This document shows positions 12,152 to 63,641 of a stretch of 64,000 nt of DNA, one piece after another. A program made the position numbers and the translations under genes. Origin of the DNA: Dehalococcoidia bacterium (GTDB lineage: Bacteria; Chloroflexota; Dehalococcoidia; UBA2979); the NCBI GenBank assembly GCA_041690175.1, contig JAWLHV010000005.1, forward strand, positions 92,494-156,493. The letters are read 5' to 3'. How positions within the stretch are numbered: the first letter of the stretch is position 1; each line of letters begins with the position of its first letter. The notes under the pieces were generated by a model. It did no database searches and had not been told where the DNA came from. It saw only the letters and a list, made by a program, of their open reading frames with translations.

Positions 12152-12427
12152 ATGAAGCGACGGCTGAGCGCGATGGCGGCGGGCGTGACGGCGGCACTGG
12201 TGCCGGTGGTGACGTTCGCGCAGGAGCACGGCGGCGCGACCTTCGAGGCGCACAGTCGCGCCACGGATCCGGGCGCGGACTGGGGCGTGGTGATGTTCAT
12301 CACCGCAATCGCGACCGCCGGCCTGTTCCTCTTGGCGACCCTCGGCTACCTGTACCGCCGGGAGCGTGGCCTGGAGTGGCCCTTCCAGCGCCCGGACGCC
12401 CCGCACGGCGACCACGGAGCGCACTAG
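12152..12427 (+). CDS. small secreted/membrane-anchored His-rich protein
   Basis: The MKRRLSAMAAGVTAALVPVVTFA signal is followed by one TM helix and a C-terminal HGDHGAH tail. Confidence 0.4.
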   Translation: MKRRLSAMAAGVTAALVPVVTFAQEHGGATFEAHSRATDPGADWGVVMFITAIATAGLFLLATLGYLYRRERGLEWPFQRPDAPHGDHGAH

Positions 12428-12574
12428 CCCCCTCGAACGCTCGAGGCGCAGACACGATGACGGCGGCCGGAAGGCCGCCGTTCTCTATGTGGCTTGCTGG
12501 TGGTTCTCCTTCTCGTGGGGGCGCAGCGCCTCCGGTGCCACGTCTCGCCCCGGTGCCAGCGCATGCTTCCGGCG

Positions 12575-33429: not shown

Positions 33430-33506
33430 TGGTCGGGGTGCCCAGATTTGAACTGGGGACCTCTTCGTCCCGAACGAAGCGCTCTGCCAAGCTGAGCTAC
33501 ACCCCG
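33430..33506 (-). tRNA. tRNA-Pro (anticodon CGG)
   Basis: Reverse complement reads CGGGGTGTAGCTCAGCTTGGCAGAGCGCTTCGTTCGGGACGAAGAGGTCCCCAGTTCAAATCTGGGCACCCCGACCA. It folds as a cloverleaf with acceptor CGGGGTG/CACCCCG, anticodon loop UUCGGGA, T-arm GGTCC..GTTCAAATC, and an encoded CCA. Confidence 0.9.
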
Positions 33507-45214: not shown

Positions 45215-45403
45215 CTGGGCCTCCCTGGATTCGCGCTGATCGTAGAGGCGAGCGCGGGCGGATGACTCCTCTCGCGCCGCTCCAGACTGGCAAGGGATAC
45301 TGCCGAAGTGGTAGGTTGGCCCTCTCGGGCCCTCCGAACGCCCGTTCGCGCATTTGTATGCGCGTCTGAACAGTTCTCGCGGCAGCCTGGCGGTCACTCT
45401 CCC

Positions 45404-48400: not shown

Positions 48401-49162
48401 GGCAAGCCCTTCGCCGCCGTCACCATCGAGGACCTGAGCGGCCAGGCGGAGGTCACGGTCTGGTCGGAGGCGTACGAGCGCTTCAAGCAGGCCGGCCTGC
48501 TCTTCGAGGGCAACATCCTGCTGCTGAAGGTCAACGTCCGCGCCCGGGGCGACCGCGTCTCCGCTGGCGTCTTCGAGGCGTGCGCGTACGACCAGGACGC
48601 CGGGCGCCTGGCGGCGGACTTCCAGCCGGGCAAGTTCCAGGTGCGGCCCTCCGGCGGCGGCTACGGCGGCGGGTTCACCCCGCGTCCGGCCGCGGTCCGC
48701 GAGCCACAGCCACCGCCCTACAACCCCGGCCCTCCGCCTGGCCCAGGAGGCCCCAACGGCACCGCCCGTACCCAGGCGGAGGGCACCTCAGACGCCCCTG
48801 CGCGCCGCCACCTGAAGGTGGTTGAGCCCGCCGGTGACGACGCCGCGCCGAGCGACCGCACGGTGGAGGCGGACACCGGCCCGCGCCGCCTGGTGGTGCG
48901 CATGGAGGAGACCACGGACGAGGCTGCGGACCGCCGCCGTATCCGTCGCATCTTCGAGACGCTGGACGAGGTCCCCGGTGACCTGTCGGTCGAGGTAATC
49001 ATCGAGCAGCGCGGCGGCGCCGTTGCGCGCCTGCAGCGGGGCGGCGTGGACGCGGCGGCCCTCGAGCGCCTCATCCCGCGCCTCAAGGCGCTGCTCGGCG
49101 TGCTCGGCGAGGCGCGCGAGGTGGGCGCGGCGGTCGCTGACCTCGCGGCCGTAGGCGGCTGA
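45404..49162 (+). CDS. dnaE: DNA polymerase III alpha subunit with C-terminal extension
   Basis: GTG start at 45404 gives VFTHLHTHTEYSLLDG (PHP domain). Polymerase core motifs are present throughout. A ~150-aa Pro/Gly-rich then acidic/helical C-terminal tail extends beyond the usual OB/tau-binding end. Confidence 0.9.
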   Translation: MFTHLHTHTEYSLLDGMSKIEPLVKRAKELGQEALAITDHGALYGAIEFYSTAKKYGVKPIIGIEAYVAPGSRFDKDAKNRWPHHLTLLAENETGYRNLLKLSSAAHLEGFYYRPRMDKELLAAHSEGLIALSGCPSGEFMSALREDDEHKAMEVAGWFSDVFKDRYYLETMEHGIAEFTPLMPRVFDLAKRLNLPTVVTNDSHYTNPDDHKAHEVLLCIGSNSTIHDEGRFKLDGHTFYLRSEEEMRSLFPDHPEAADNTWEIAERVDIDLQFGRTQLPNPGIPDGKTARDYLRELCEEGLYRRYSDVTDAHRERLRFELDVVAQTGFDEYMLIVRDIAQYAKSNGIRMGVRGSAAASIILYTLDVTDIDPLAWGLVFERFLNPERLSMPDVDFDFADDRREQIIRYTVEKYGRDRVAQICTFGTLGAKAAIRDTGRALGMDFGAADRIARMVPDALHISLADALKQSQDLQQAYEAEAQVRELVDTAQALEGVARHSSTHAAGVVISSEPLTNVVPLQRATSKDADSEASVPTTQYPMADIDKIGLLKIDYLGLTNLSILEKALNLIEARRGERVDLLTLPDGDPATAEVLSNGDTFGVFQMESAGMRRYVMELKPQNVAELSAMVALYRPGPMEQLPTYIDVKHGRAQPYYAHPDLKEILEETYGVITYQEQVLHIARTFAGYSLGQADVMRKAMGKKIASVMVEERERFLAGLREQGYEEKLGNDLFDLIEPFAGYAFNKAHAVCYGAIAYQTAYLKAHYPAEYMTAVLQAANGNSDRIAAAIAECNRLGIPVLQPDVNRSDVNFAIEVLDDGAEAIRFGLAQIKNVGMGGVEGLIAEREAKGEFESVEDFARRINPRDVNKRVLEALAKAGAMDSMADRGAVITGVDRLLSLAQQEARLRDTGQTSMFDMFGDEVNTPLPALELESVRIPQPQLLAWEKELLGTYISEHPFAAAARTLSRYTTHQAGEIGPDVAGQDAIVAGLITGIRALSTKQGKPFAAVTIEDLSGQAEVTVWSEAYERFKQAGLLFEGNILLLKVNVRARGDRVSAGVFEACAYDQDAGRLAADFQPGKFQVRPSGGGYGGGFTPRPAAVREPQPPPYNPGPPPGPGGPNGTARTQAEGTSDAPARRHLKVVEPAGDDAAPSDRTVEADTGPRRLVVRMEETTDEAADRRRIRRIFETLDEVPGDLSVEVIIEQRGGAVARLQRGGVDAAALERLIPRLKALLGVLGEAREVGAAVADLAAVGG

Positions 49163-49910: not shown

Positions 49911-51587
49911 ATGGCATCCGCCATACGCCTGGGCATCGTCGGCCTGGTGCTGGTTGCGCTGTGGTCGTGGGTGGGGCCGTCCCAGTTGGGCGGTCCGCTC
50001 ACCTTCGCGGTGACGTCCGGCATCAGCATGGAACCGGACCTGAGCGCCGGTGACCTTGTCCTCGTGCGGCGCACCGCGAACATCGAGCGCGGCCAGGTGA
50101 TCCTCTACCGCGGCGACCACGCCGGGCACGACGTACTGCACCGCGTCATTGCCATCACGGACGGTGCGTACACCACCAAGGGCGACAACAACGCCTGGGT
50201 AGATCAGGACCGCCCCACTGCCGCCCAGGTCCGGGGCGTCTACTGGGGCCACATACCGGGCGCGGGCAAATGGCTCAGCGTCCTTCAGTCGCCGGTCGGC
50301 GGAGCCGCCATCGGTGGACTGCTACTGGGAGTCCTCGCCATGTCCATGACCCCATCCGCCTCCACACCCGCAGCGGCGCCGTCGTCCGGGCCGCGAGCCC
50401 GCTACCGGGGGCCCCAAGGCCGGACCCCCAGCCTCCGCACCCGCGCCGCGGCCTTCGCTGAGTCGGCGATGGCAGACGCGGCGATGGGCACGGCCCTGGC
50501 GCTCATCGCAGTGGGCGTGCTGCTGGCCGCCTGGATGCTGATGCAGCCAGCCCGGACGACCATCACCGTGGCCACCTCGTACGCGCACTCCGCCGACTGG
50601 GAGTACCAGGGGCGCACCGGGTGGGAGGGCGTCCTTCCGGACTACGGCTCCGCGCCGAATCCGCTGACGCAACAGCCCACCACCGGTCAGCCGATCTTTC
50701 CGAGCGTCACACCGCTCCTTGATGCCACGATGAACTATCGGATGACTGGAGCGCTGCAGGACGTCTCCGGCCAGGCCCGCCTCTTCGTGATCCTCCGGGA
50801 GGACGTGACCGGCTGGTCGCAGGAGTTCGAACTGGAACCCTGGACGTCTTTCACGGGGAACACGGTCAGCCTGACTTCAGAGGTGGACCTGCGCGAGGCG
50901 ATCCAGGCGCTCTCCCAGTTCGAACAGTCCGCCCAGATCAATGGTGCCCTCTACCGCGCGGTCCTCGCCGCGGAGGTGCGGGTGGCCGGGACTGACGACC
51001 GAGGCGCGCAGGTGACGGACGAGTACCGACCGTTCCTGGTCTTTCGCACCGAACTTCCTCGGCTGGTGCGCGTGGACCATGGTGGCACCGTCTCCCCGGA
51101 GGCCATGGCCGCGGGCATCGACCCGCTGGGGGACCTGGTCCGTGACGTGACCCCTCGTGAACTCGTGAGCCACGCGGAGGTCGACCGGAAGGTCTCCGTG
51201 CTGGCCTGGGATGTGCCGGTGTGGGGGCTCCGCGTGGTTGCCGTAGCGCTGGCCGTGGTCGGGCTCGCCGGGGCGTTCACGCTCCACCGCCTGCGGCGCT
51301 GGGCGGACGAGCGCGGCGAGTGGTTCCGCATCCGCGCGCGGTTTGGCAGCCACCTGGCCTTCAGCCCGCAGCCCCCACGCGACCCGGCGGGGCGGGAGTA
51401 CCTGGACCTCCGCTCGTTCGAGGACATCCTGGCGATGGCGGCGACGCATATGCAGCCGATCCTGTGCGTGGAAGAGTCGCAGCGCGTGACCTTCTTCGTA
51501 CTGGACCTGCCGAACGCCATCTATCGCTTCCAACTGCCCATCCCCGCACACGGACCGGGACACCATGTTGCGACTCAGACGGCCTAA
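49911..51587 (+). CDS. SipW/ER-type (S26B) signal peptidase I fused to ~400-aa multi-TM C-terminal extension
   Basis: The N-terminal TM is followed by VTSGISMEPDL (Ser box), DVLHRVIAI (His box) and TKGDNNAWVD (box E). Further hydrophobic helices follow (AIGGLLLGVLAMSM, GTALALIAVGVLLAAWMLM, VWGLRVVAVALAVVGLAGAF) with a large extracytoplasmic region between them. Confidence 0.75.
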   Translation: MASAIRLGIVGLVLVALWSWVGPSQLGGPLTFAVTSGISMEPDLSAGDLVLVRRTANIERGQVILYRGDHAGHDVLHRVIAITDGAYTTKGDNNAWVDQDRPTAAQVRGVYWGHIPGAGKWLSVLQSPVGGAAIGGLLLGVLAMSMTPSASTPAAAPSSGPRARYRGPQGRTPSLRTRAAAFAESAMADAAMGTALALIAVGVLLAAWMLMQPARTTITVATSYAHSADWEYQGRTGWEGVLPDYGSAPNPLTQQPTTGQPIFPSVTPLLDATMNYRMTGALQDVSGQARLFVILREDVTGWSQEFELEPWTSFTGNTVSLTSEVDLREAIQALSQFEQSAQINGALYRAVLAAEVRVAGTDDRGAQVTDEYRPFLVFRTELPRLVRVDHGGTVSPEAMAAGIDPLGDLVRDVTPRELVSHAEVDRKVSVLAWDVPVWGLRVVAVALAVVGLAGAFTLHRLRRWADERGEWFRIRARFGSHLAFSPQPPRDPAGREYLDLRSFEDILAMAATHMQPILCVEESQRVTFFVLDLPNAIYRFQLPIPAHGPGHHVATQTA

Positions 51588-51972
51588 CCCCTGGGTGTTG
51601 GCGGTTGCCGTGGTGCTGGCCGCGCTGGCCATGGGGCTGATCCATGGCTCCACGGCGGCCAACTCTGTCCCGCCGTCGCGGGCGGGGATCTCGGTCGTGC
51701 AGACGGCGCCGTACCAGTTTGCGCCCCACGCCTGCGGCGGGCTCAACCTGTCGGGCATCATCTACGCGACGGGCGGCCGTACCCGGGGCACCGCCCAGAA
51801 TGACCTCATCATCGGCACCAGCGGCAACGACCGTCTCGATGGAGAGGAAGGCGACGACTGCCTGGTGGCCGGCGGCGGGAAGAACGACCGGCTGGACGGC
51901 GGGCCCGGCTACGACGTGTGCGTGGGGAACGCCGACACGCAGTTCACCAACTGCGAGGTCGAAGTGCGCTAG
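51565..51972 (+). CDS. small exported protein with SipW-cognate-like signal and RTX-like Ca-binding repeats
   Basis: Overlaps the peptidase gene by 23 nt. The helix WVLAVAVVLAALAMGLIHG is followed by STAANSVPPSRAGI. Tandem nonapeptide-like repeats follow (GTSGNDRLD, GGGKNDRLD, GGPGYDVCV). Confidence 0.6.
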   Translation: MLRLRRPNPWVLAVAVVLAALAMGLIHGSTAANSVPPSRAGISVVQTAPYQFAPHACGGLNLSGIIYATGGRTRGTAQNDLIIGTSGNDRLDGEEGDDCLVAGGGKNDRLDGGPGYDVCVGNADTQFTNCEVEVR

Positions 51973-52093
51973 TGCCGGGGAGGGGCGCACTCCGCCCGTG
52001 GGGACGGGGCGCAGCGTCAGCCTCCCTTGACCTCTGGCACACACGGCGGCCTCGCCGTTTCGGTACACTCGACCGACCCCACCTACCGCGAGG

Positions 52094-53098
52094 ATGCCCA
52101 TGGCCCAGCCTGCGGACTTCGGCACGGACGTTCCCTCCGCCGTCCAGCGTCAGCATGCGGAGGTAGATGCGATCCGCCGCGAGGTGGGGCGCGTCATCGT
52201 GGGACAGCAGGCCCTGGTGGACCGGCTGCTGGTGGCGCTGCTGACCAACAACCACGCGCTGGTGGAAGGCGTCCCTGGCCTGGCCAAGACGCTCACCGTG
52301 TCCACGCTCGCCGCGGCGCTGGAATGCACGTTCGCGCGCATCCAGTTCACGCCGGACCTGCTGCCGGCGGACGTGACGGGCACGCTGATCTTCAACCCCC
52401 AGGAGAGTGACTTCCGCGTCCGCCGCGGGCCGATCTTCGCCAACATCGTGCTGGCGGATGAGATCAACCGTGCGCCTGCGAAGGTGCAGTCCGCGCTGCT
52501 GGAGGCCATGCAGGAGCGCCAGGTGTCCATCGGCGGGCAGTCGTTGCCGCTGCCGGATCCGTTCCTGGTGCTGGCCACGCAGAACCCCATTGAGCAGGAG
52601 GGCACCTACCCCCTGCCCGAGGCCCAACTCGACCGCTTCATGATGAAGATCGTGGTGGACTACCCGGAGCGGGACGAGGAGCGTGAGATCCTGGCGCGCG
52701 CCCTGGCCGATGAGACGGACGGCGCCCGCCCCGCGGTCTCCATCATGGAGGTGGCCAACCTCCGCGCGGCGGTCCGCCAGGTGGACGTGAACGACCGCCT
52801 GCGCGAGTACGTGGTGCGCCTGGTGGAGGCGAGCCGCAATCCCGAGCGCTATCGCATGGGGGACCTGGCTCCGCTGATCGAGTACGGCGCGTCACCTCGT
52901 GCGGGCGTCTTCCTCGCCCGCGGCGCGCAGGCATACGCCTTCATCAACGGCCGCGACTACGTGACGCCGGAGGACATCAAGGCCATTGCCCCGGACGTGC
53001 TCCGCCATCGCCTGGTCCTGACCTACGAGGCGGAAGCGCGCGGCGTCTCCGCGGACCAGGTGGTCACGACGCTCCTCGAGGGCGTCGGGATTCCCTAG
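52094..53098 (+). CDS. MoxR-family AAA+ ATPase
   Basis: Walker A EGVPGLAKT, Walker B IVLADEINRA, and the MoxR sensor region [23 protein letters not shown]. Confidence 0.9.
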   Translation: MPMAQPADFGTDVPSAVQRQHAEVDAIRREVGRVIVGQQALVDRLLVALLTNNHALVEGVPGLAKTLTVSTLAAALECTFARIQFTPDLLPADVTGTLIFNPQESDFRVRRGPIFANIVLADEINRAPAKVQSALLEAMQERQVSIGGQSLPLPDPFLVLATQNPIEQEGTYPLPEAQLDRFMMKIVVDYPERDEEREILARALADETDGARPAVSIMEVANLRAAVRQVDVNDRLREYVVRLVEASRNPERYRMGDLAPLIEYGASPRAGVFLARGAQAYAFINGRDYVTPEDIKAIAPDVLRHRLVLTYEAEARGVSADQVVTTLLEGVGIP

Positions 53099-53108
53099 GG
53101 CCACCGCC

Positions 53109-54029
53109 GTGCCCTCCCGTCCCACCAGCGCCCCGCACGAGCCGCTTGCCCTGTCCGCGGGCCTCCTCGGCCGGGTGCGTGGCATCGAGATCCGCACGCG
53201 GCGGTTCGTCTCCTCGCAGGTGTCCGGCAACTACCGCTCGGTCTTCCGCGGTGCCGGGATCGAGTTCGCGGAAGCGCGCGAGTACGTCCCGGGCGACGAC
53301 GTGCGCCGCATCGACTGGAACGTCACCGCGCGCACCGGCACGCCCTGGGTGAAGGAGTACGTGGAGGAGCGCGACCTGACCGTGGTCTGCGCCGTGGACC
53401 GTTCGCCCTCCATGCTCGCAGCGAGGCCGGACGCGGGCCGCCTGCGGGCGTCGGCGGAACTGGTGGCGCTGCTGGGCTTCGCCGCCTCCTACAACAACGA
53501 CCGCACGGGGCTGCTGACGTTCAGCGACGGCGTGGACGCGTTCGTGGAGCCACGTCGAGGTACGCGCCACGTCCTGCGCCAGGTGCGTGACGTGCTGCAT
53601 GCAGACCTCGCACCGCGCCGCAGCACGGCGATGGCCCCGGCGCTGGAGCACCTGGCGCGCATGCTGCGGAAGCGGTCGCTGGTCTTCGTGGTCTCGGACT
53701 TCTTCACCAGCGGCTACGCCCAGGCGCTGCAGACGCTGGCGCGCCGGCATGACGTGGTGGCGCTGGTGCTGGTGGATCCCCTGGACCTGGAACTGCCGGA
53801 CGTGGGCCTGCTGGACGTGGTGGACGCGGAGACCGGCCGCCGCCTGCTGGTGGACACATCGGACGCCGGAGTGCGTCGTCGCTACGCCGAGGCCGCCGCC
53901 GCCCGCGCCACCGCACGGGACGCGCGCATCACCGGCGCGGGCGCGGACCAGGTGGAGATCCGCGTGGACCAGGACGTGGCGGAGCCCATGGCCGCCTTCT
54001 TCCGGCGTCGCGCGCTGGTCGCCCGATGA
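53109..54029 (+). CDS. DUF58 (vWA-like) protein partner of MoxR
   Basis: RRIDWNVTARTGTPWVKEY...VVCAVDRSPSM is the DUF58 signature. Confidence 0.85.
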   Translation: MPSRPTSAPHEPLALSAGLLGRVRGIEIRTRRFVSSQVSGNYRSVFRGAGIEFAEAREYVPGDDVRRIDWNVTARTGTPWVKEYVEERDLTVVCAVDRSPSMLAARPDAGRLRASAELVALLGFAASYNNDRTGLLTFSDGVDAFVEPRRGTRHVLRQVRDVLHADLAPRRSTAMAPALEHLARMLRKRSLVFVVSDFFTSGYAQALQTLARRHDVVALVLVDPLDLELPDVGLLDVVDAETGRRLLVDTSDAGVRRRYAEAAAARATARDARITGAGADQVEIRVDQDVAEPMAAFFRRRALVAR

Positions 54030-55021
54030 TCGCGGACCGGCGGATCGCCAGGGCTCTCAGGCTCGCTTGCGTGCCGATGCTCCTCGCGGTCGCGTTCACC
54101 CTCCCCGTGCCCGCCGGAGCGCAGGAGGCCGACCCCGCGCTGGAGGTCACGGCCTCGTTCTCGCCGCCAGCGGCCACGCTGGGCGACCGGGTCACGCTGG
54201 ACGTGCGCGTGCGGCACACCTCGGAGGTGGTGGTCACGGTCGAGCGCCCCGCCATCGAGGGCGCGGAGGTGCTGGGCGATGCGCAGCCCGTGACGGTGGT
54301 GCAGCCGGACGGCGCGGTGGTGACGTCCTACTCGTTCCGGTACCAGTTGTTCGTGCTCGGCGAGGTGGACGCGGGCCAACTGCGGGTGCGCTGGCTGCGC
54401 GAGGACGGCAGCACCGGCGGCTACGTCACGGCGGGGCCCATCCTGACGGTCGTCTCCGTGCGCGCTCCCGGAGACGTGGAACTGCGGCCATTGAAGCCCC
54501 CGCTCGCGGTGGCCGGCGCGCCTCCCGCGTGGGTGCGTCCCGCCGCCATCGCAGGGGCTGTGGCGCCGGTCGCGGTGGCGCTCGTGGCCGCGGTGGTGCT
54601 GTGGCGGCGGCGTCGGCGGCAACCGGAGGTGGAGGCGGAGCCGCACACGGCGGAGGAGCGCGCGCGAGAGCGGTTGGACGCTCTGCGCCGCCGACGGCTG
54701 GAGGACGACGAGGCGTTCCAGGCGTACTACGGGGCGATCGCGGTGTCCGTGCGGGACTACCTGGGCGACCGCTTCCACTTCAACGCGGCCGCGCTCACCA
54801 CGTCAGAACTCGAGCGGCGGATGACGGCTCACGGTGTGGACCGCTGGCAGGCGCGCCTGGTCGGGGGGCTGCTGGACCGCTGTGACCGCGCCGTCTACGC
54901 GCGCGACTACCCGGACCCCGCGTCCGCAGACCATGACCTGACCGTCGCCTACGAGATCGTGGAGCTGTCGCGACCGCGACAGCCCGAGCGCGCGGAGGCA
55001 GAAGCGGTGGCGGCGCCGTGA
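54026..55021 (+). CDS. signal-anchored membrane protein of Bat-like operon (BatD/DUF4381-like position)
   Basis: Signal peptide, a ~150-aa extracytoplasmic beta-rich domain, one TM (AIAGAVAPVAVALVAAVVLW), and a basic cytoplasmic helical domain. It is translationally coupled on both sides. Confidence 0.5.
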   Translation: MIADRRIARALRLACVPMLLAVAFTLPVPAGAQEADPALEVTASFSPPAATLGDRVTLDVRVRHTSEVVVTVERPAIEGAEVLGDAQPVTVVQPDGAVVTSYSFRYQLFVLGEVDAGQLRVRWLREDGSTGGYVTAGPILTVVSVRAPGDVELRPLKPPLAVAGAPPAWVRPAAIAGAVAPVAVALVAAVVLWRRRRRQPEVEAEPHTAEERARERLDALRRRRLEDDEAFQAYYGAIAVSVRDYLGDRFHFNAAALTTSELERRMTAHGVDRWQARLVGGLLDRCDRAVYARDYPDPASADHDLTVAYEIVELSRPRQPERAEAEAVAAP

Positions 55022-55974
55022 TCCTGGGGGAGGGCGTGACGCTGGCCGCGCCAGCGGCGCTGCTCCTGCTGGTGCCCCTGGCGCTGCTGTTCCTGGTGCG
55101 CGTCCGCTCACCTCGGCCCGCCGCGGCCGTCGCGGACATGGGGCCGCTTGCTGCGGCTGCGCGCACCACGTTGCGGATGCGGCTGCGCCGGCTCCCGGAC
55201 GTGCTGCGTGCGCTGGCCATCGTGGCGCTGGTGGTGTCCCTCGCCCGCCCGCGCGAGGGGCTGGCCGTGACCTCGCTCCCGGAGGAGGGCATCGACATCG
55301 TCGCTGCGGTGGACGTCTCGTCCTCCATGCGCAGCGGCTTTGACGGCCGCGAGTCGCGGCTGGAGGCGGCGCGTCGGGTGCTGGAGGAATTCGCCGGGAC
55401 GCTGGAGGGCGACCGCCTGGGCCTGGTGGCCTTCCAGTCGCGTGCGCTGACGCTCTCCCCGCTCACCAACGACATCCCGGCGATCCAGGCGCGCATCGAC
55501 CAGTTGGCGCCGGGGTTGGTGATGGACGGCACCGCCATTGGCCTCGGCATGGTGGAGGCGCTCACGCTGCTGGAGGACTCGCCCGCGCGCAGCCGCGTGG
55601 TGGTGCTGCTGACGGACGGCGCGAACAACGCCGGGGACGTCACGCCCGCGGACGCCTCGCGCATTGCGCAGGCGCTGGGCGTGCGCGTCTACACCATCGG
55701 CATCGTGCCACGGGTGGGGTTCGCCCTGGACCCCATCGACCGGCGGGCAATGGCGGAACTGGCGGAAGTCACCGGCGGGTCATTCTTCGACGCCGGAACG
55801 CCCGAGGAACTGAGCGCCGCCTACGAGGAGATCGGGACGCTGGAGCGCTCCCGGATCGGCGAGCGCGAGTTCGTCGCCTTCCGGGAGTTCGGCCCGTTGT
55901 TCGCACTGGGGGCGGCAACGCTCTTGCTGCTGGACCTCTCGCTCAGGGCGACGTGGCTGCGGAGGCAGCCGTGA
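55018..55974 (+). CDS. vWA-domain membrane protein (BatA-like)
   Basis: Two N-terminal TMs and a MIDAS motif DVSSSM...LTDGANN. Confidence 0.8.
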   Translation: MILGEGVTLAAPAALLLLVPLALLFLVRVRSPRPAAAVADMGPLAAAARTTLRMRLRRLPDVLRALAIVALVVSLARPREGLAVTSLPEEGIDIVAAVDVSSSMRSGFDGRESRLEAARRVLEEFAGTLEGDRLGLVAFQSRALTLSPLTNDIPAIQARIDQLAPGLVMDGTAIGLGMVEALTLLEDSPARSRVVVLLTDGANNAGDVTPADASRIAQALGVRVYTIGIVPRVGFALDPIDRRAMAELAEVTGGSFFDAGTPEELSAAYEEIGTLERSRIGEREFVAFREFGPLFALGAATLLLLDLSLRATWLRRQP

Positions 55975-57797
55975 TCCCCGGCGTGAGCGGGACGGGAGCG
56001 TGGGGAGAACCGCTGGCGCTGTCAGCGCTGGTGTTGCCGCTGCTGGCGCTGCTCGCGCTCCGCTATGCGCTGGCGCGTCGTCGCCACGTGGCTGCGGCCC
56101 TCGGTGGACCGCCCGGCCTGCGGGGTGGCCGCGAGGGGCGGCGCGTGGTGACGGGCGCGCTGCTGGTGGCGGCGCTGGCGCTGGCGGTGCTCGCGGCCGC
56201 GCGGCCGCAGTGGGGCGCCGGCGACCAGGCCCTGGAGCAGCGCGGCATCGACCTCGTGATCGCCCTCGACGTCTCGCGCTCGATGGAGGCCCAGGACGTG
56301 GCGCCCAGCCGCGCGGAAGCGTCGGCGGCGGGCCTCGCGGAGATGCTCACGCACCTCACCGGCAACCGGGTGGGCCTGGTGGTCTTCGCGGGCTCCGCCT
56401 TCGAACGCGCGCCGCTCACGGTGGACCTGCCGGTGCTGTCCTCCATGGTGGCTCGCGCCCAGGGGGAGGCGCCCCTCGTGCAGCCCGGCACGGACCTGGC
56501 CGCGGCAATCCAGGCGGCGCTCCGCGTGCTGGACGTGGACGAACCGGCGCGCACACAGGCCATCCTGCTGGTCTCGGATGGGGAGGATCTGCGGCCGTCG
56601 CTGGCGGAGGCGCTGGCCGCCGCGGACGAGCGCGGCGTGCGCGTCTACACCGTGTTCGCGGGCACCACCTCGCCCGCGCCGCTGCCCGCCCCGGGAGGCG
56701 GCACCCGCCCGGACGACCTCAGCACCGCTCGCCCGGAGGTGCTGCAGGAGGTCGCCAGCGCCACCGGTGGCGCCTTCCGCAGCGTGGAGCAGGTGGCGGG
56801 CCTGGCGGTGGAGTTCCGCCGGCTCCAGCAGACGCAGTTCGCCTCTGACGTGCGGCCCGCCCTGGTGGATCGCTTCCCGTGGTTCGCCGGCGGCGCGCTC
56901 GCCCTCCTGGCGCTGGCCATGCTGGTGGGCGAGGGCGGTCGGCCGCCTCGTCCGAGGCTGCGGGGCGGCGTCATCACGGCGTCGCTGGTGGCGGTGGTCC
57001 TCGCGGGCTGTGGGACGGCGGCGTGGCGACACGTGGAGGACGGTAACCGCGCCTACGAGGAGCAGCGTTACGAGGACGCGCTGACGTCCTACCGCCAGGC
57101 GGCCGAGGCGGACGCGGACGACCCGGCGGTGGACTTCAACATCGCGAACGCCCTTCACCGGTTGCGCCGGCTGGAGGAGGCGGCCGTGTCCGCGCAAGCC
57201 GCCGTGCAGGGCGCGCTGGACCGCGAGGATCTCCCGCTGGCCGCGCTGGCGCACTACACCAGCGGCAACACCGCGTTCCAGCGGGAAGAGTGGGAGGGCG
57301 CCCGCGACGCCTACATCGCCGCGCTGCGCCTGGACCCCGAGGACCGGGACGCCAAGGCCAACCTGGAACTCGTGCTCGCCATCCTCGCTCCACCGCCGGA
57401 CGAACCCCCGGCAGGCGGCGAGCAGGAGGGCGAGGACGGCGACCCCGCCGATCCGGGCGACCAGGAAGGCGCCGAGGGCGGCGAGGGTGAAGGCGAAGGC
57501 GACGGCCAGCAGGGTCAGCCCGGACAGCAGCCCGGCGAACCGGGCCAGGGCGAGGGCTCCCCGGATGGGACGCCCGGCGATCCACAGCAGGGGCCGGCCC
57601 AGCCGGGCCAGGGACAGGACGGTGAACCGCTCCCCTCCAGCCTCCCGGAGGCGCGCCAGGCGCTGGCCGAGGCACTGGGAGCGCTGGGCCCGGAGGTCAC
57701 GGAGGCGGAGGCGCTGCGGATCCTGGAACTCGCCCGCCGCGCGAACGAACTGGAGCCGCTACCGGACGATCGCGGAGGTGGGCCCACGGCGCGCTAG
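55953..57797 (+). CDS. vWA-TPR fusion protein (BatB/BatC-like) with acidic Gly/Glu/Pro-rich tail
   Basis: MIDAS motif DVSRSM...VSDGED. TPR repeats (YEEQRYEDALTSYRQAAE...; GNTAFQREEWEGARDAYIAAL). The C-terminus is a low-complexity GEGEGDGQQGQPGQQPGEPGQGEG stretch. Confidence 0.8.
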   Translation: MAAEAAVIPGVSGTGAWGEPLALSALVLPLLALLALRYALARRRHVAAALGGPPGLRGGREGRRVVTGALLVAALALAVLAAARPQWGAGDQALEQRGIDLVIALDVSRSMEAQDVAPSRAEASAAGLAEMLTHLTGNRVGLVVFAGSAFERAPLTVDLPVLSSMVARAQGEAPLVQPGTDLAAAIQAALRVLDVDEPARTQAILLVSDGEDLRPSLAEALAAADERGVRVYTVFAGTTSPAPLPAPGGGTRPDDLSTARPEVLQEVASATGGAFRSVEQVAGLAVEFRRLQQTQFASDVRPALVDRFPWFAGGALALLALAMLVGEGGRPPRPRLRGGVITASLVAVVLAGCGTAAWRHVEDGNRAYEEQRYEDALTSYRQAAEADADDPAVDFNIANALHRLRRLEEAAVSAQAAVQGALDREDLPLAALAHYTSGNTAFQREEWEGARDAYIAALRLDPEDRDAKANLELVLAILAPPPDEPPAGGEQEGEDGDPADPGDQEGAEGGEGEGEGDGQQGQPGQQPGEPGQGEGSPDGTPGDPQQGPAQPGQGQDGEPLPSSLPEARQALAEALGALGPEVTEAEALRILELARRANELEPLPDDRGGGPTAR

Positions 57798-60170
57798 CGG
57801 CCCGCCCTGGACGCGGCCGAGCCGGAACACGCGACGCACCACCAGGCGGCGCAGCACGTTGCGGACCGTGCGGTACTGCTCGTCCGCCTGCTCCCGCTGG
57901 TCCTCGGTCTCCTCTGCGGCCTCGGGCCCGCCATAGCGCACGCCCGTGTACGAGCGCGCCAGCCCTCGCAGCGCCGCAGGCTCGCCGATGCGTGGGGCCA
58001 GGTCCTCCGCCGACTCAGCCGGCGTGCGGTCGTCCAGCACGCCGAAGCCGGCCCATGACGCCAGCCGTTGCACCTTTGCCCAGCGCCGCTCCGCCGGTGC
58101 GAGGCCCGCGTAGGCGCGCTCCCACCAGAACCGCGCGATCACGATGAGCACGATCGCCAGCGTGGAGGCGATGAGCGTCCACGCGATGATCCGCCCCACC
58201 GTCTCCCGCAGCGCGCTGTCCTCCGTGGTGATCGCCTCGCCACCCGCGGCGCTGTCCCGGAACTCCTCGTCCAGCAGGTCCAGCAGCAAGTCGTCCAGCA
58301 GGGCATTGAAGTCGTCGTCCACCGCCGGATCCACGGCGTCGCGCGCGTCGCGAGCGGCATCATCACTTTCAGGACGGCCCACTACACCCCGGCTGGGGGT
58401 TGGGTTGAACTCCACCCAGCCCAGGCCCGGGAAGAACACCTCCGGCCATGCCCACGCGCGTTCCTCGGTCACGCGGTATGCCTTGGTCTCCGCGTCCAGG
58501 TCGGCATCGTCCAGCGCAAACCCCACAGCCACACGGGTGGGGATGCCCAGGGAGCGCAGCATCACGGCCATGGAGGAGGAGAACTGGTCGAAGTAGCCCT
58601 GCTGAGACTCCAGCAGGAAGTGGGCGACCGCGTCTGAACCGGGCGGAGCCGCCTCGATGGCGAGCGAGAACTGGTAGTTCTGCCGCAGGTACGTCTCCAC
58701 GAGGCGGGCGGCCTCGTACGGCGTCTGCGCGCCGCTGGTCACGGTGCTGGCCAGGTCCGCCACCTCCGGCGGCAGGTCCGGCGGGAGGGCCGTGTAACGG
58801 TCGCGGATGGACTGTGGGTAGTCCGTGCCGGCCTCCAGGAGCGTGGGGATCGCGGCCACGGAGACGGTGCCCACCGTGCTGTACGACGTGCCGGGCCGTA
58901 CGGCGCCGGCGCTGGGCACCAGTGCCAGCGCCCGTCCGGAGGAGTCCAGCAGCAGCCGCGCATCCGCGTCCGTGGTCACGGGATCGCCCGCCGAGAGCAG
59001 CGCGGCGCCGGGCGCGTGCTCGCTGACCACCGTCACTTCCACGCGCAGGGGTTCGCGGATCTCCGCGCGGCTCGCGGGCGTGCCGAGTTCCGCCGCCTCC
59101 ACGGTGGTGCCCAGCAGGTCCACCGGTGCTGCGGAGGACACCCGCCACCCGCGGCCGGTGTACTCGTCGTACACGGCGCCGCGGACGTTCATCTCGTCCT
59201 CCGCCACCACCTCGAAGAGCACCTCGGTGTTGAGGAAGATCTCGCCTTGCAGCGGCAGGGAGGCGCCCAGGGCGTGCACGGGGATCGGCTTCTTGGAGCC
59301 CACGCCCACGAACAACTGGCCCAGCCGGTCCACTCGCTCGTTCACGGGAGCCAGGACGCGTCCCCAGGTGTCCGCAACCGGGCCCCAGTTGTTCGCCGTG
59401 GGGATCACCCACGCGGCGGCTACTAGCACCAGCGCGACCACGCCGCCGGCAAAGACCACCTCCACGGACATGCCATCGCTGGGCTTGACGCCCTCGCTGG
59501 ACCACCGGTCCACCGCGCGCAGGTAAGTCAGGCGCGCCACCAGCAGTACCGCCGCCAGGATGAAGACCACGAAGGAGAAGGCCGGCTGCCCCGGCAGATA
59601 GGAGATGTTGGTGAGCAGGACGAAGCCGCCGGGCACCAGCGCCACCCACGGGTTCCGCCAGCGCACCACGGCCCAGGTGGACACGAACGCCACCAAGAAC
59701 ACGCTGCTGACCAGCAGCACCACGAACGGCAGAGGGTCCGTGGAAATGCCGGAGTCCACCAGCGCGCGGCCCCACTCCAGCAGGCGCAGCCGGAACTCCG
59801 ACCAGCGCGCCCCCAGGCCGGTGGCCTCCGGGTCTGCCAGCACCATGGTCTGCAGCACCAGGGCCACGGTGGTGACCGCGCCCACGCCCAGGCCCGCCAG
59901 CGCCGCCATGCCGCCGTTCAGGCGCATGTGGCCCAGCACCCACGCGGCCGTCAGGCCGGCAGCCGCCGGCGCGAGCAGCGAGGGCATCTCCGACACCCAG
60001 TCGGACGTCTGCAGCGACCCCACCACGGGCAACTGCACCAGGATCACCAGCGACAGCGTCAGCCAGGACTCCCACGACCGCCAGGTGCGCTCGCGCACCG
60101 GCGTCCCGGTCGGCCTTGACGGCTGGTGGGGCCGCTCGAAGTAGCGTTCGAAGGAGACGGCCTGCGCCAC
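57759..60170 (-). CDS. polytopic transglutaminase-like (DUF3488/TgpA-type) protein, apparently lacking catalytic triad
   Basis: N-terminal 6-7 TMs. The TGc core region reads QQGYFDQFSSSMAVMLRSLGIPTRVAVGF ... RAWAWPEVFFPGLGWVEFNPT. The Cys-, His- and Asp-equivalent positions read F, R and N. There is a C-terminal TM and an acidic tail. Confidence 0.75.
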   Translation of the reverse strand: MAQAVSFERYFERPHQPSRPTGTPVRERTWRSWESWLTLSLVILVQLPVVGSLQTSDWVSEMPSLLAPAAAGLTAAWVLGHMRLNGGMAALAGLGVGAVTTVALVLQTMVLADPEATGLGARWSEFRLRLLEWGRALVDSGISTDPLPFVVLLVSSVFLVAFVSTWAVVRWRNPWVALVPGGFVLLTNISYLPGQPAFSFVVFILAAVLLVARLTYLRAVDRWSSEGVKPSDGMSVEVVFAGGVVALVLVAAAWVIPTANNWGPVADTWGRVLAPVNERVDRLGQLFVGVGSKKPIPVHALGASLPLQGEIFLNTEVLFEVVAEDEMNVRGAVYDEYTGRGWRVSSAAPVDLLGTTVEAAELGTPASRAEIREPLRVEVTVVSEHAPGAALLSAGDPVTTDADARLLLDSSGRALALVPSAGAVRPGTSYSTVGTVSVAAIPTLLEAGTDYPQSIRDRYTALPPDLPPEVADLASTVTSGAQTPYEAARLVETYLRQNYQFSLAIEAAPPGSDAVAHFLLESQQGYFDQFSSSMAVMLRSLGIPTRVAVGFALDDADLDAETKAYRVTEERAWAWPEVFFPGLGWVEFNPTPSRGVVGRPESDDAARDARDAVDPAVDDDFNALLDDLLLDLLDEEFRDSAAGGEAITTEDSALRETVGRIIAWTLIASTLAIVLIVIARFWWERAYAGLAPAERRWAKVQRLASWAGFGVLDDRTPAESAEDLAPRIGEPAALRGLARSYTGVRYGGPEAAEETEDQREQADEQYRTVRNVLRRLVVRRVFRLGRVQGGPLARRGPTSAIVR

Positions 60171-60173
60171 GGG

Positions 60174-61457
60174 CTACACCTTCCCGCTACCCGGCTCGGC
60201 AGCCATGCGCGCGGACTCGCGTTCGGTATCGATGCCGGCGGAGAGCACGCGACCAATGTCGTCCGTCTGCTTCACGGTGAACGTGTAAACGCCGCCCGAA
60301 GCCAGCGTGCTGTAGGCGTCCAGCGGGCTGGGCGCGTCCGCGAAGGTGTTGGCCTCCAGCAGCACCGCCGCCACCTTCACGCCACGCGTGGAGAGCGAGA
60401 TCAGCGTCAGTGGCCAGTCGGGGTCGGTTGAGGGCGTGACCACCACCACCGTCGTGTGCCGGCCGAAGCGGCGGGACTCCTCCAGGAGCAGGTTGGAGAG
60501 CGGTGCGTCGCCCACCGCGCGCGCCATGGCCAGCGTCTCCAGCATGCGCGTGTAGTGGTTCTGGCCGCGGTCCGGCTCATCGATCCGCAGGTCCTGCCCG
60601 AACGTCATCAGGCCCACCGTGCGGTTCTGCTGGATGAAGTACCGGCAGATCGAGGCGGCGACGGACACGGCCGTCTCCTCCGTGGAGTCCTCGCCCACGC
60701 CCACGTGGTGGCGGGCCTCCAGGTCCAGCACTACCCAGATGTCAGAGGCCGGGTCTAGTTCGAACAACTTGACCATCGGGTCGCCCATGCGGGCGGTGGC
60801 CGGCCAGTGGATGCGGTTGTAGGAGTCTCCCGGCTGGTAGGGGCGCAGGCCCGACACGTTGGGCGTGACGTTGTGCGTGCGGCGCCGGATGCGGCCCTCG
60901 CCCGGCAGGTTCGCCGGTGGCACGTAAAAATTGGCCAGGTCCGGGGCGTTCGGGTACACGAGGATCGAGGTGGGTTCGCCAAACGTGCGCGTGACGCGGA
61001 AGAAGCCGAACGGATCGGACGCCGTGACGCGCACCGGCCCCAGCGTGTAGACGCCGCGCAGCCGCGTGCGCGTCCGGTAACTCCAGGAGGTCACGCCGCG
61101 CACGCCCAGCGTGAGCACGCGATGCGCGGAGTGGCCGGGCACCGAGGACGGATCCTCCACCTCCAGCCACACCTTGGGCAGCAGGGAGCGGGAGCGCACC
61201 CAGATCTGACCCTCGAGGGGCTGGCCCTGGGTGACGCGCTGATCCGTGCGGCGGACCTCCACCTCCAGGCCGCGCGCCATCTCGCGTGTCCAGAAGTACG
61301 CGAGCGGGATGGCAATGACGATGACGTAGGCCAGCCGGAATAGCAGCCAGAAGCCGGTGGCGAACCCCACCACCACGCAGATCGCCGCGACGAACGCGGT
61401 CACGGAGACATTGGGATGGCCCCGGACCCAGGCGACGGCGCCGGCCACGGTCTCCAT
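60174..61457 (-). CDS. DUF58 protein with N-terminal TM helices
   Basis: YNRIHWPATARMGDPMVKLFE...IWVVLDL matches the DUF58 core. It is tightly packed between the MoxR gene (6-nt gap upstream) and the transglutaminase-like gene (3-nt gap downstream). Confidence 0.85.
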   Translation of the reverse strand: METVAGAVAWVRGHPNVSVTAFVAAICVVVGFATGFWLLFRLAYVIVIAIPLAYFWTREMARGLEVEVRRTDQRVTQGQPLEGQIWVRSRSLLPKVWLEVEDPSSVPGHSAHRVLTLGVRGVTSWSYRTRTRLRGVYTLGPVRVTASDPFGFFRVTRTFGEPTSILVYPNAPDLANFYVPPANLPGEGRIRRRTHNVTPNVSGLRPYQPGDSYNRIHWPATARMGDPMVKLFELDPASDIWVVLDLEARHHVGVGEDSTEETAVSVAASICRYFIQQNRTVGLMTFGQDLRIDEPDRGQNHYTRMLETLAMARAVGDAPLSNLLLEESRRFGRHTTVVVVTPSTDPDWPLTLISLSTRGVKVAAVLLEANTFADAPSPLDAYSTLASGGVYTFTVKQTDDIGRVLSAGIDTERESARMAAEPGSGKV

Positions 61458-61462
61458 GGTGG

Positions 61463-62419
61463 CTACGCGCCGCCGCGCGCGCGCACGCCGGGGACGGCTA
61501 CGCGGTGGATGACCTCGTCAATGACCTGCGCGGGATCGATGTCGCGGACGCGGGCGCTGGGGCTGACGATCACCCGGTGGCCCAGCACGGAGTACGCCAG
61601 CGCCTTCACGTCGTCCGGCTGTACGAAGTCGCGCCCGTCCAGCATGGCGTACGCCTGCGTGGCCCGCATGAGGCCCAGTGAGCCTCGAGGTGACGCGCCC
61701 AGGTAGACGGACTCGTGCTCACGCGTGGCCGTGACCAGGTTCACGATGTACTGCTTGATCAGGGGGTCCACGTAGATCTTGCCCACCGCGTCCTGCAGTT
61801 CCAGCAGTTCCGCCGGGCTGACCACCTGCTGCAGTGCCTCAATGGGGTGGCGCTCCTGCTGCGCGTCCATGATCAGCACCTCGTCCGTGGCGGACGGGTA
61901 GCCCAGGTGGATGCGCATCAGGAAGCGGTCCAACTGCGCCTCCGGCAGCGGGAAGGTGCCCTCGTACTCAATGGGGTTCTGGGTGGCCATCACCATGTGC
62001 GGCGAGGGCAGGCGGTGGGTGATGCCGTCCACCGTGACCTGGTGTTCCTCCATGGCCTCCAGGAGCGCGGACTGCGTCTTGGGGGTGGCGCGGTTCACCT
62101 CGTCCGCCAGGACGATCTCGGACATGATCGGCCCGGCCCGGAAGGTGAACTCGCCCGTGCCCTGCTGGTAGATCGAGACGCCGGTCACGTCCGTGGGGAG
62201 CAGGTCCGGCGTGAACTGGATCCGAGAGAAACGACACCCCGTGGACTTCGCCAGGGCCCTCGCCAGCATGGTCTTGCCCACGCCGGGGACGTCCTCGATG
62301 AGCAAGTGCCCGCGACAGAGGAGCGTGACCAGCGCCAAGCGCGCCTCCTCCGTCTTGCCGATGATCACGTGCTCCACGTTGGAGAGCACGCGCTCCGCAA
62401 CAATCCTGGGATCCTCCAT
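61463..62419 (-). CDS. MoxR-family AAA+ ATPase
   Basis: Start at [11 protein letters not shown] (ATG 62419, with GGAGG 7 nt upstream). Walker A DVPGVGKT, Walker [11 protein letters not shown], and [23 protein letters not shown]. Confidence 0.9.
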
Positions 62420-62636
62420 GACGCCTCCGATCAAGGCTGACCTTGGACGGTCAGGCTGGGACAGTCAGGCTGGGACGTCCCTGTGAAGGACACCCGCGAG
62501 CGCGTTGCCGGGTCAAGAGGGTGGGAGTGTACCGGGCTCTGCCACACCCGATGTGGGCGGAGTATAGCAATGACGCAAGTCATCTCCCCTGTCCCGGGCG
62601 TTACGATCGAAACCACGGTGCAACCTTCTCGGATCT

Positions 62637-63641
62637 ATGCCTGACCGGCCGCGAGGGCGGCGCTTCACTCGTCGAGCGGTGCTCGCGGGGGCCCTCGGCG
62701 TGCCGCTGGCCGCCCTGCTGGGCGCCTGTGGGGAAGAGGCGGAGCCGCCGGCAGCCGTGATCACCGGCACTCCCTTCGACCCCCCGACCGCAACCCCCAG
62801 TCCCACCACCACCGCGGAGGCGCCTCCCGGCACCCTGGAGGCGGCATTGGACCCGGCCGAGGTGGGCCAGGGCGAGAGCACCGTGCTGCTGGCCCGCCAG
62901 CCCGGCGCCGCCTCCGGGAGCGTGCGGTTCGTGGGGAAGCGCTATCCCCTGCTCGGCGAGGGCGACCAGGGGCACCTCTGGGCGGTACTAGGCGTGGGCC
63001 TGGGCGTGCCGCTGGGTGAAGACGTGGCTACGGTCACCACGCGCGACCGCGCCGGCGGCCCGCTGACCACGCTGGAGGTGCCGTTCACCGTGGTCAGCGT
63101 CCCGCGTCCGGTGGACTACCTGACGGCGAGCGCGGAGGTCACGGCCGTCCTGACGCCGGAGGCTGCGGAGATCGAGGCCGCCCTCCGCACCTTCGCGCAG
63201 TTCAACCGCTTCGAGGCGCGTCCCCGCTGGAACGGCCGGCTGGCGATGCCGGCCGAGGGCTTCATCACCACGGAGTTCGGCCAGGGCCGCTCGATCAACG
63301 GAGGCCCCGTGGGCGGCTTCCACAGCGGCGTGGATATCGCGAACGCAGCAGGAACCTCGATCCTGGCTCCCGCAGCGGGCCGCGTGGCATGGGTGGACGC
63401 GATGCCCATCCGCGGCAACAGCGTCCTGCTGGACCACGGCGCAGGCGTGGTCACCGGCTACCACCACCTGCTGGAGGCCACCCGCGAGGTTGGCGACTTC
63501 GTCGAAGAGGGTGATGAGATCGCGAAGATGGGTTCAACAGGGTTCTCTACCGGTCCCCACCTCCACTGGGAGATGACGATCTACGGCGTCAACGTGGACC
63601 CGCTGACGTGGACGCGGGAGATCTTCCTGCCGCGGGCGTAG
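62637..63641 (+). CDS. Tat-secreted lipoprotein-type M23 family metallopeptidase
   Basis: RRFTRRAVLAGALG twin-arginine signal with LGAC lipobox. M23 motifs HSGVDI, NSVLLDHGAG and GPHLHWE. Confidence 0.85.
   Translation: MPDRPRGRRFTRRAVLAGALGVPLAALLGACGEEAEPPAAVITGTPFDPPTATPSPTTTAEAPPGTLEAALDPAEVGQGESTVLLARQPGAASGSVRFVGKRYPLLGEGDQGHLWAVLGVGLGVPLGEDVATVTTRDRAGGPLTTLEVPFTVVSVPRPVDYLTASAEVTAVLTPEAAEIEAALRTFAQFNRFEARPRWNGRLAMPAEGFITTEFGQGRSINGGPVGGFHSGVDIANAAGTSILAPAAGRVAWVDAMPIRGNSVLLDHGAGVVTGYHHLLEATREVGDFVEEGDEIAKMGSTGFSTGPHLHWEMTIYGVNVDPLTWTREIFLPRA

Follow-up and report, generated by a model that had tools for sequence, protein, structure and literature searches.

In a 64,000-nt stretch of Chloroflexota DNA (the window; G+C content ~71%), two MoxR-DUF58 modules lie tail to tail next to a gene for a peptidoglycan metallopeptidase of the M23 family, and the transglutaminase-like protein of one module has lost all three of its catalytic residues. 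Module A, on the plus strand, is of the Bat operon type and encodes MoxR_A, DUF58_A and three membrane proteins: a 331-residue protein, a BatA-like protein and a fusion of von Willebrand factor A (vWA) and tetratricopeptide repeat (TPR) domains. Module B, on the minus strand, is a gene triad of the type PA2875-PA2874-tgpA and encodes MoxR_B, DUF58_B and a TgpA-like protein predicted to be a pseudoenzyme. Both kinds of module are already known; what appears to be new is the pseudoenzyme form of the TgpA-type triad and the fact that, across a lineage of Chloroflexota, this triad is attached to a Bat operon and an M23 gene. To our knowledge, few bacterial gene sets without a known mechanism are as widespread as MoxR-DUF58 systems, and here a large lineage seems to keep one such system under selection after its catalytic residues were lost, beside a Bat operon and a wall hydrolase. 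We propose that the locus is a conserved envelope block in which both modules, each of ancient origin, and the divergent M23 gene serve one envelope process, a proposal for which we regard the chances of being right or wrong as evenly balanced.

The earlier note on this DNA described the last protein of module B as a transglutaminase-like effector, a description that holds for its fold but not for its active site, where the loss of the entire catalytic triad was overlooked. The AlphaFold2 (AF2) model of the TgpA-like protein (predicted local distance difference test score, pLDDT, 86.8; predicted template modeling score, pTM, 0.77) has seven N-terminal transmembrane (TM) helices, an ectodomain at residues ~258-650, an eighth TM helix at 651-686 and a helical tail at 692-783, which is DUF4129-like and predicted to be cytoplasmic. 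Its best match in the PDB is the periplasmic domain of TgpA (6g49/6g4h; Foldseek E 2.5e-14, TM-score 0.70), with which the ectodomain shares only ~20% identity. When the two are aligned (6g49), the cysteine of the TgpA motif GFCAHY falls on F527 in GYFDQF, the histidine of DAHAWVE on W573 in RAWAWPE, and the aspartate of SVDPT on N589 in EFNPT. In the model F527 stands at the N-terminus of the helix 527-540, and the nucleophile of papain-fold enzymes canonically sits at a helix N-terminus. There is no cysteine among the 803 residues of the protein (the median among 120 homologues is also zero), and the ectodomain holds three histidines only, none of them at the site. From its sequence we predict that the protein is a catalytically dead pseudoenzyme without transglutaminase activity and, since Cys, His and Asp are all lost, that its ectodomain probably binds or scaffolds instead of cross-linking. 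Inactive transglutaminase-fold scaffolds are known, namely protein 4.2/EPB42, Rad4 and FBXO21 (PMC10318531), and in the literature that was searched there was no report of a bacterial pseudoenzyme of the TgpA type.

The lost catalytic residues have been replaced in a regular manner. All 120 close homologues (>=45% identity) are of the Phe-Trp-Asn (F-W-N) type, four of them as F-F-N, and representatives at 34-39% identity carry F-Y/F-N/S, while relatives below ~35% identity mostly carry C-H-E (55) or S-H-E (26). The family is large: a threshold of E <= 1e-3 yields 30,424 representatives, and one of E <= 1e-30 still yields 1,613. In a rough, unbootstrapped neighbor-joining (NJ) tree the proteins with a dead catalytic triad form one clade, sister to a small S-H-E group. 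Because the replacement residues F527, W573 and N589 are themselves conserved, the site is, by this comparison, under selection and not decaying. The Ser-His-Glu clade, which makes up 26 of the 150 best representatives (P0165, P0166 and P0169, for example), may use serine as its nucleophile or may be inactive as well; in its loci L013, L034, L041 and L085 the MoxR and DUF58 partners are kept and lie next to dnaE, without Bat genes.

Module B has the same three-gene order as PA2875 (MoxR), PA2874 (DUF58) and PA2873 (TgpA) of Pseudomonas aeruginosa, and TgpA has the topology predicted for the window protein, both being polytopic with an outward transglutaminase-fold domain (PMC3507681). The loop charges of the window protein fit an arrangement with the N-terminus in, the ectodomain out and the C-terminus in (hydropathy and positive-inside rule), and on this basis and by analogy with TgpA (PMC3507681) its ectodomain would face outward. 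TgpA, which is essential in Pseudomonas and has a proposed role in the cell wall (PMC3507681), keeps Cys-His-Asp and has transglutaminase activity in vitro, whereas the window protein has Phe-Trp-Asn. The statement of the earlier note that neither type of module is biochemically understood is only roughly true, since activity in vitro and a crystal structure are on record for the TgpA ectodomain (PMC3507681; 6g49) and a BatA homologue has a mapped topology (PMC5700661). A MoxR-DUF58-transglutaminase triad like module B also occurs in a Gram-positive-type bacterium, as part of the Bifidobacterium PFNA cluster (pkb2-fn3-aaa_atp-duf58-tgm; PMC8430577, PMC12067865), but that cluster has a Ser/Thr kinase and FN3 and no Bat module, and the window has neither kinase nor FN3. 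Since the gene triad appears to have been retained under selection after the catalytic residues were lost, the main task of the triad may not depend on transglutaminase chemistry.

The distribution of the arrangement was followed in 100 loci from genomes and metagenomes, surveyed from the transglutaminase side and, with the vWA-TPR protein of the distant locus L028 as query, from the Bat side. All eight genome loci with enough flanking sequence have dnaE, module A, convergent module B and M23. A convergent Bat module follows the transglutaminase gene in 16 of the 23 dead-triad loci with enough downstream sequence, and in none of 25 Cys-His and none of three Ser-His loci. A DUF58 gene stands upstream of the transglutaminase gene in every dead-triad locus (22/22) and in 25 of 35 Cys-His loci; many Cys-His transglutaminases have no MoxR or DUF58. 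From the Bat side, six of seven loci (L094-L099) contain a Bat module, a convergent triad whose transglutaminase is Y-Y-D or F-F-N, and a divergent M23 gene, and the flank upstream of Bat differs among them: dnaE in L094, two luciferase-like genes in L095, L096, L098 and L099, and trpS with chorismate-binding genes in L097. The earlier note had proposed looking for the convergent arrangement in relatives, and had named unlinked orthologous modules as evidence against a functional link; the tail-to-tail arrangement recurs in 22 related loci in total, and every Bat-linked transglutaminase is of the dead-triad form (23/23, window included). The block persists down to ~29-34% identity of the transglutaminase and 41-53% of DnaE.

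Exceptions to the arrangement are of several kinds. In L016 the junction is absent and the transglutaminase gene runs into an M23-LysM gene and rho; in the F-Y-N subclade (L026, L027, L030, L033, L059 and L084) it is absent too, and PAS histidine kinases, obg or dnaA lie downstream. The seventh Bat-side locus, L100, has its Bat module followed by a DUF2007 gene and unrelated metabolic genes. In the four S-H-E loci named above the gene triad leads straight into dnaE with no Bat genes between, and the adjacency of dnaE to the TgpA-type triad appears to be older than the Bat junction. The pattern suggests that the block arose once, survived several rearrangements on the Bat side and was broken at least three times.

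As the earlier note had it, the locus holds two MoxR-DUF58 systems that are paralogous but differ in their membrane effectors, which are Bat-like in module A and TgpA-like in module B; its further suggestion of a duplicated locus did not survive comparison of the paralogues. MoxR_A and MoxR_B share 45% identity with each other, but MoxR_B shares 55-87% with the triad-linked MoxR of all surveyed loci, very distant ones included, and MoxR_A shares 58-80% with its orthologues. The two DUF58 proteins share 34% identity and can be aligned over 116 residues only. DUF58_A has no TM segment by hydropathy and has a motif (DxSxS...D; D97-S99-S101-D197) resembling a metal ion-dependent adhesion site (MIDAS), kept in 13 of 13 orthologues. 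DUF58_B has a hydrophobic stretch at residues 22-62 followed by an Arg-rich segment, its DxSxS position reads D-E-R and varies among orthologues, so that no MIDAS is present, and it is predicted to be a membrane-anchored cytoplasmic adaptor. A recent inverted duplication of one MoxR-DUF58 unit would account for the fact that a MoxR gene, with a DUF58 gene directly downstream, heads each module, but the MoxR copies are each far closer to orthologues in distant loci than to one another, and the DUF58 pair differs in length, membrane anchoring and MIDAS as well as in sequence. These identity comparisons exclude a local or recent duplication, an origin that we consider practically inconceivable. 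Because the MoxR pair is so divergent, MoxR_B is closer to orthologues in distant loci and the DUF58 pair is alignable over so short a stretch, the two modules are, on sequence grounds, ancient paralogues that evolved separately. Hydropathy revealed no TM segment in either MoxR. Walker A (GxxGxxKT) and Walker B (DE) motifs are intact in MoxR_A and 11 of 11 orthologues, and likewise in MoxR_B and all 40 orthologues in which both motifs are covered (nine more have incomplete coverage). A MoxR neighborhood with DUF58 and vWA/TPR genes is the defining criterion of the MoxR-proper (MRP) class (PMC12067865, PMC11834572), to which we assign both ATPases.

The three membrane proteins of module A resemble Bat proteins to differing degrees, and the NCBIfam BatA, BatB and BatC models score far under their cut-offs. 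Bat operons, named for Bacteroides aerotolerance, affect stress tolerance and virulence. Those described from Bacteroides, Riemerella, Leptospira and Borrelia (MoxR-DUF58-BatA-BatB-BatC-BatD-BatE) share with module A the order MoxR, DUF58, membrane vWA protein and TPR protein, and MoxR stands at the operon head in both (PMC11834572). The BatA-like protein (VWA_BatA_Lepto 154 bits, cut-off 380) has TM segments at residues 9-27, 58-76 and 291-309 by hydropathy, an Arg-rich loop between the first two, and a MIDAS (DxSxS..T..D) kept in 13 of 13 orthologues. It shares the three-TM layout and the MIDAS with the BatA homologue BB0173 of Borrelia, whose vWA domain was found experimentally to face the periplasm (PMC5700661); from hydropathy, the positive-inside rule and the layout of BB0173, the vWA domain of the window protein is predicted to be extracytoplasmic. 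The vWA-TPR fusion matches BatB_Lepto (96.9 bits) and BatC_Lepto (58.8 bits), both below the cut-offs, keeps the MIDAS (DxSxS..T..D) in a vWA domain likewise predicted to be extracytoplasmic, and begins with a layout like that of the BatA-like protein. Its TM segments, by hydropathy, are at residues 21-39, 65-83, 308-326 and 336-354, the last of which ends in LAGC and resembles a former lipoprotein signal, and they are followed by TPR repeats and an acidic Gly/Pro/Gln-rich tail. A long acidic low-complexity stretch rich in Gly, Glu, Pro and Gln (57270-57650, residues ~480-560) separates the repeats from a conserved C-terminal helix of ~50 residues.

The 331-residue protein has an AF2 model (pLDDT 86.5) with an N-terminal signal or anchor helix, an Ig-like beta-sandwich at residues 40-143 that is predicted to lie outside, a TM helix at 170-195 with RRRRR directly after it, and a helical domain at 209-314; its invariant residues cluster at 235-317. 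A Foldseek search of the PDB with this model returned generic Ig matches only. Some homologues carry PF14316 (DUF4381), one carries PF13584 (BatD), and the equivalent protein in L100 matches BatD weakly; the profile search found no match to BatD (PF13584) or to the TPR-SH3 protein BatE among the window proteins. None of the three membrane proteins of module A is predicted to have another cytoplasmic domain of any size, and for this reason we infer that the helical domain is where DUF58_A and MoxR_A engage. Judged by its genes, then, module A belongs to the Bat operon type, although its BatB and BatC are fused, BatE is missing and the third gene is only weakly BatD/DUF4381-like. It differs from the described Bat loci also in its host, a Chloroflexota lineage known from metagenome-assembled genomes (MAGs), and in lying tail to tail with a TgpA-type triad, an arrangement unreported for them.

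The M23 gene is divergent from MoxR_B, with which it shares an intergenic region of 202 nt, and its product has HxxxD and HxH motifs and an LGAC lipobox and matches peptidoglycan metallopeptidase families. Of 14 dead-triad loci, 11 have such a gene no more than 1.5 kb upstream of MoxR_B, as against none of eight Cys-His loci and neither of two Ser-His loci; it is present in L094-L099 too. Beyond it, in L094 and L096-L099, are genes for the methyltransferase PrmA and for DnaJ, followed in L094 by HSP70; in L096, L098 and L099 genes for an RNA methyltransferase and a short-chain dehydrogenase lie in between. As the order M23, PrmA, DnaJ is repeated in these loci, the triad side of the block seems to sit in a stable housekeeping neighborhood. 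L016, a close relative of F-W-N type without the Bat junction, has M23 genes on both sides of the triad (6829-7578 and 12270-13430), the downstream one with LysM and followed by rho. The adjacency of M23 is the strongest pointer to a role of the triad at the wall. It has a parallel in the mycobacterial region ripA-ripB-moxR1-Rv1480(DUF58)-Rv1481(vWA), in which a MoxR-DUF58-vWA operon lies beside peptidoglycan hydrolase genes (PMC12067865), although the hydrolases there are of the NlpC/P60 family, not M23, and flank a vWA-type module, not a TgpA-type triad.

A working principle for such modules is available from the MoxR-type ATPase NorQ, which grips a finger of its VWA partner NorD in the central pore and remodels it (PMC13036017). 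By the same principle each MoxR hexamer of the window would grip its DUF58 partner in the cytoplasm and use ATP hydrolysis to remodel it. In module A, the soluble DUF58_A would relay to the cytoplasmic helical domain of the BatD/DUF4381-like protein, and this relay would alter the state of an outside assembly composed of two MIDAS vWA domains and the TPR domain. In module B, the membrane-anchored, MIDAS-less DUF58_B may act on the cytoplasmic tail or the TM bundle of the TgpA-like protein, whose dead ectodomain would bind a ligand and not cross-link it. ATP hydrolysis inside the cell would in both cases remodel a membrane partner and so change binding by domains outside. The conserved M23 gene suggests that the ligand or client of the TgpA-like ectodomain may be part of the cell wall, and it is because the adjacency of the two modules and M23 persists that we propose one process at the wall or envelope. 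NorQ-NorD, RavA-ViaA and CbbQ-CbbO share the principle of a MoxR hexamer that grips and remodels a VWA partner, which then acts on a target (PMC13036017, PMC9976466), but these systems lack DUF58 and mature cytoplasmic or membrane metalloenzymes, whereas the presumed targets in the window have extracytoplasmic working domains.

In a more elaborate version of this model, which we put forward as an unlikely one, the two modules and the M23 lipoprotein would form a single trans-envelope machine specific to this Chloroflexota lineage: the TgpA-like ectodomain, after its loss of catalysis, would be a docking platform for wall peptides or proteins, engaged by the outward MIDAS and TPR domains of the Bat proteins and gated by the two MoxR motors to control cleavage by M23. 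In systems of the FtsEX-EnvC/PcsB type, a cytoplasmic ATPase drives a membrane protein that controls a peptidoglycan hydrolase through its outside domain, in some cases the fold of a dead enzyme. The likeness to MoxR_B, DUF58_B, the dead TgpA-like protein and M23 is one of analogy only and not of homology, as FtsE is an ABC ATPase and the interaction with M23 is hypothetical here. If such a machine exists, TgpA-type proteins would be essential for a structural or regulatory reason and not for an enzymatic one, and the long-unexplained Bat proteins would gain a concrete partner. If the coupling is not real, the locus consists of two known modules that are chance neighbors. The block also names candidate partners.

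It is credible, if somewhat doubtful, that the two modules are functionally independent, and that a Bat operon landed beside a TgpA-type triad once, in the ancestor of this Chloroflexota clade, after which the pair was handed down passively because the region rearranges slowly. On the transglutaminase tree (the rough NJ tree described above) the adjacency originates only once, and for this reason the correlation between loss of the catalytic triad and the Bat junction counts as a single evolutionary event. Slow rearrangement could explain part of the conservation, as housekeeping neighbors are kept as well: the dnaE flank across much of the clade (11 loci) and M23-PrmA-DnaJ on the other side. 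Being convergent, the modules are not co-transcribed; they have separate putative promoters and no shared operator or upstream motif was found, and the junction was broken at least three times, in L016, in the F-Y-N subclade and in L100. Either kind of module can occur by itself, the TgpA-type triad in Pseudomonas (PA2875-PA2874-tgpA; PMC3507681) and in the 25 of 25 Cys-His-type loci that have no Bat, and Bat loci in Bacteroidetes and spirochaetes (PMC3557215; PMC5700661; PMC11834572). All of this weighs against the proposal of one envelope process, as do the comparative nature of its support, drawn from an uncultured MAG lineage, and the topologies, which rest on hydropathy and homology. Yet the Bat-triad junction is intact next to three different Bat-side flanks, which weakens an explanation by descent only, even though the nearest relatives keep dnaE and M23 just as well as they keep the junction; and the block persists at the low identities of transglutaminase and DnaE given above. 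At such divergence most non-functional synteny is usually lost. Independence also leaves every one of the 23 Bat-linked transglutaminases with a dead catalytic triad. The comparative data make a functional linkage of the two modules more likely.

The remaining alternatives concern what the locus does. That the TgpA-like protein is still an enzyme, using other residues such as a non-thiol nucleophile, and that module B covalently modifies envelope proteins or peptidoglycan, would agree with the strong conservation of F527, W573 and N589, which points to a site under selection, and with the related Ser-His-Glu clade (26 representatives), which might be an active serine variant; we nevertheless consider it very improbable, since none of the three replacements is able to serve as a nucleophile or general base, cysteine is absent, no ectodomain histidine lies at the site, and inactive transglutaminase-fold domains are known as scaffolds (PMC10318531). 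A conflict or anti-phage role, as proposed for MoxR-vWA ternary systems of multicellular prokaryotes (PMC7159879), is more improbable still. Both MoxR proteins do match the bpMoxR profile (54 and 38 bits), but their AAA_3 scores are far higher (218 and 214 bits, cut-off 27), PADLOC gave no matches, no beta-propeller or effector domain is present, and the synteny with dnaE, M23, PrmA and DnaJ is stable and not that of a variable island.

All eight genes that the earlier note had placed between 52094 and 62434 are present there as open reading frames (ORFs) with strong family matches (ORF list and Pfam/NCBIfam profile search; Table 1). The translations of five of the eight are identical to genes called on one NCBI contig, and the nearest named relatives of the proteins are from Dehalococcoidia/Chloroflexota MAGs.

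Table 1. Genes and putative promoter elements of the locus, with window coordinates.
Feature	Coordinates	Strand	Evidence
Candidate module A promoter, -10-like hexamer TACACT	52064-52069	+	25 nt upstream of MoxR_A start
MoxR_A, MoxR-proper (MRP) AAA+ ATPase, soluble, cytoplasmic	52094-53098	+	AAA_3 E 3e-65; AAA_lid_2
DUF58_A, short soluble DUF58/vWA-like adaptor	53109-54029	+	DUF58 E 2e-62; VWA_2
Bitopic BatD/DUF4381-like membrane protein, 331 aa	54026-55021	+	DUF4381 24.9 bits (cut-off 27.2)
BatA-like protein	55018-55974	+	VWA/VWA_2; BatA N-terminal domain PF07584 22.9 bits (cut-off 25.9)
vWA-TPR fusion, BatB-like + BatC-like	55953-57797	+	VWA_2, TPR_11 and TPR_2 above cut-offs
TgpA-like polytopic protein, 803 aa	57759-60170	-	Transglut_core E 9e-22, 77.9 bits; TgpA_N and DUF4129 weak
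DUF58_B, long, N-terminal TM hairpin	60174-61457	-	DUF58 E 6e-22
MoxR_B, MoxR-proper AAA+ ATPase of the TgpA-type triad	61463-62434	-	AAA_3 E 5e-64; AAA_lid_2
Putative extended -10-like element TGCTATACT upstream of MoxR_B	62561-62569	-	Conservation
M23 (LytM-type) peptidoglycan metallopeptidase lipoprotein	62637-63641	+	Peptidase_M23 E 3e-27

The convergent 3' ends overlap by 39 nt (57759-57797) when both stop codons are counted, one more than the 38 nt first reported. Of the 4-nt overlaps attributed to the plus-strand operon, two are seen (ATGA at 54026-54029 and GTGA at 55018-55021) and a third (GTGA at 55971-55974) is likely, should the vWA-TPR gene begin with the GTG at 55971 and not at 55953, but MoxR_A and DUF58_A are separated by 10 nt. 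The gaps between the minus-strand genes are 3-5 nt. The distance from stop to stop is -39 to +31 nt within the closest clade; in deeper relatives, which have a small DUF2007 gene between the modules, it is +220 to +576 nt. With a spacing that varies from -39 to +576 nt, the 39-nt overlap is ruled out as a conserved regulatory feature. The DUF2007 gene (69-80 aa) is found between the convergent modules of deeper relatives (L010, 3572-3781), downstream of dnaE where Bat is absent (L013, 12493-12723) and after the Bat module in L100 (9528-9770); in the clade of the window it has been lost and the two 3' ends have closed up. No terminator was found at the 3' junction, and the transcripts of each operon probably run into the 3' end of the other.

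Conservation suggests that each module has a promoter of its own, and a scan for consensus sigma-70 promoters gave no match. The motif TA(C/G)ACT lies 24-70 nt upstream of MoxR_A in all related loci that were checked. Upstream of MoxR_B the closest loci (L001-L009, L014 and L017) have TATACT, mostly as TGnTATACT, and the deeper L015 and L016 have the variant hexamers TAGACT and TACAAT. The two upstream regions, when searched for a shared operator, had a single 10-mer in common, CGGTACACTC, where 0.26 would be expected; this 10-mer overlaps with the -10-like hexamer and lacks significance. At the Rfam gathering threshold no riboswitch or other RNA was found near the locus, and the only match in the whole window is one tRNA gene (33433-33506, minus strand).

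Upstream of module A, the window carries a full-length DnaE-type DNA polymerase III alpha subunit gene with PHP, alpha, finger, HHH and OB domains (45308-49162, plus strand). Two further plus-strand genes lie between it and MoxR_A: an archaeal/SipW-type signal peptidase I fused to a membrane-anchored extension of ~400 residues (49911-51587; TIGR02228, 60.7 bits) and a small ORF with RTX calcium-binding repeats (51565-51972). A tblastn search for the signal peptidase, in which the RTX ORF was not included, found no counterpart among the first 93 related loci. MoxR_A follows within ~150 nt of dnaE in L008 and L017; for these reasons the signal peptidase and RTX pair looks like a local insertion.

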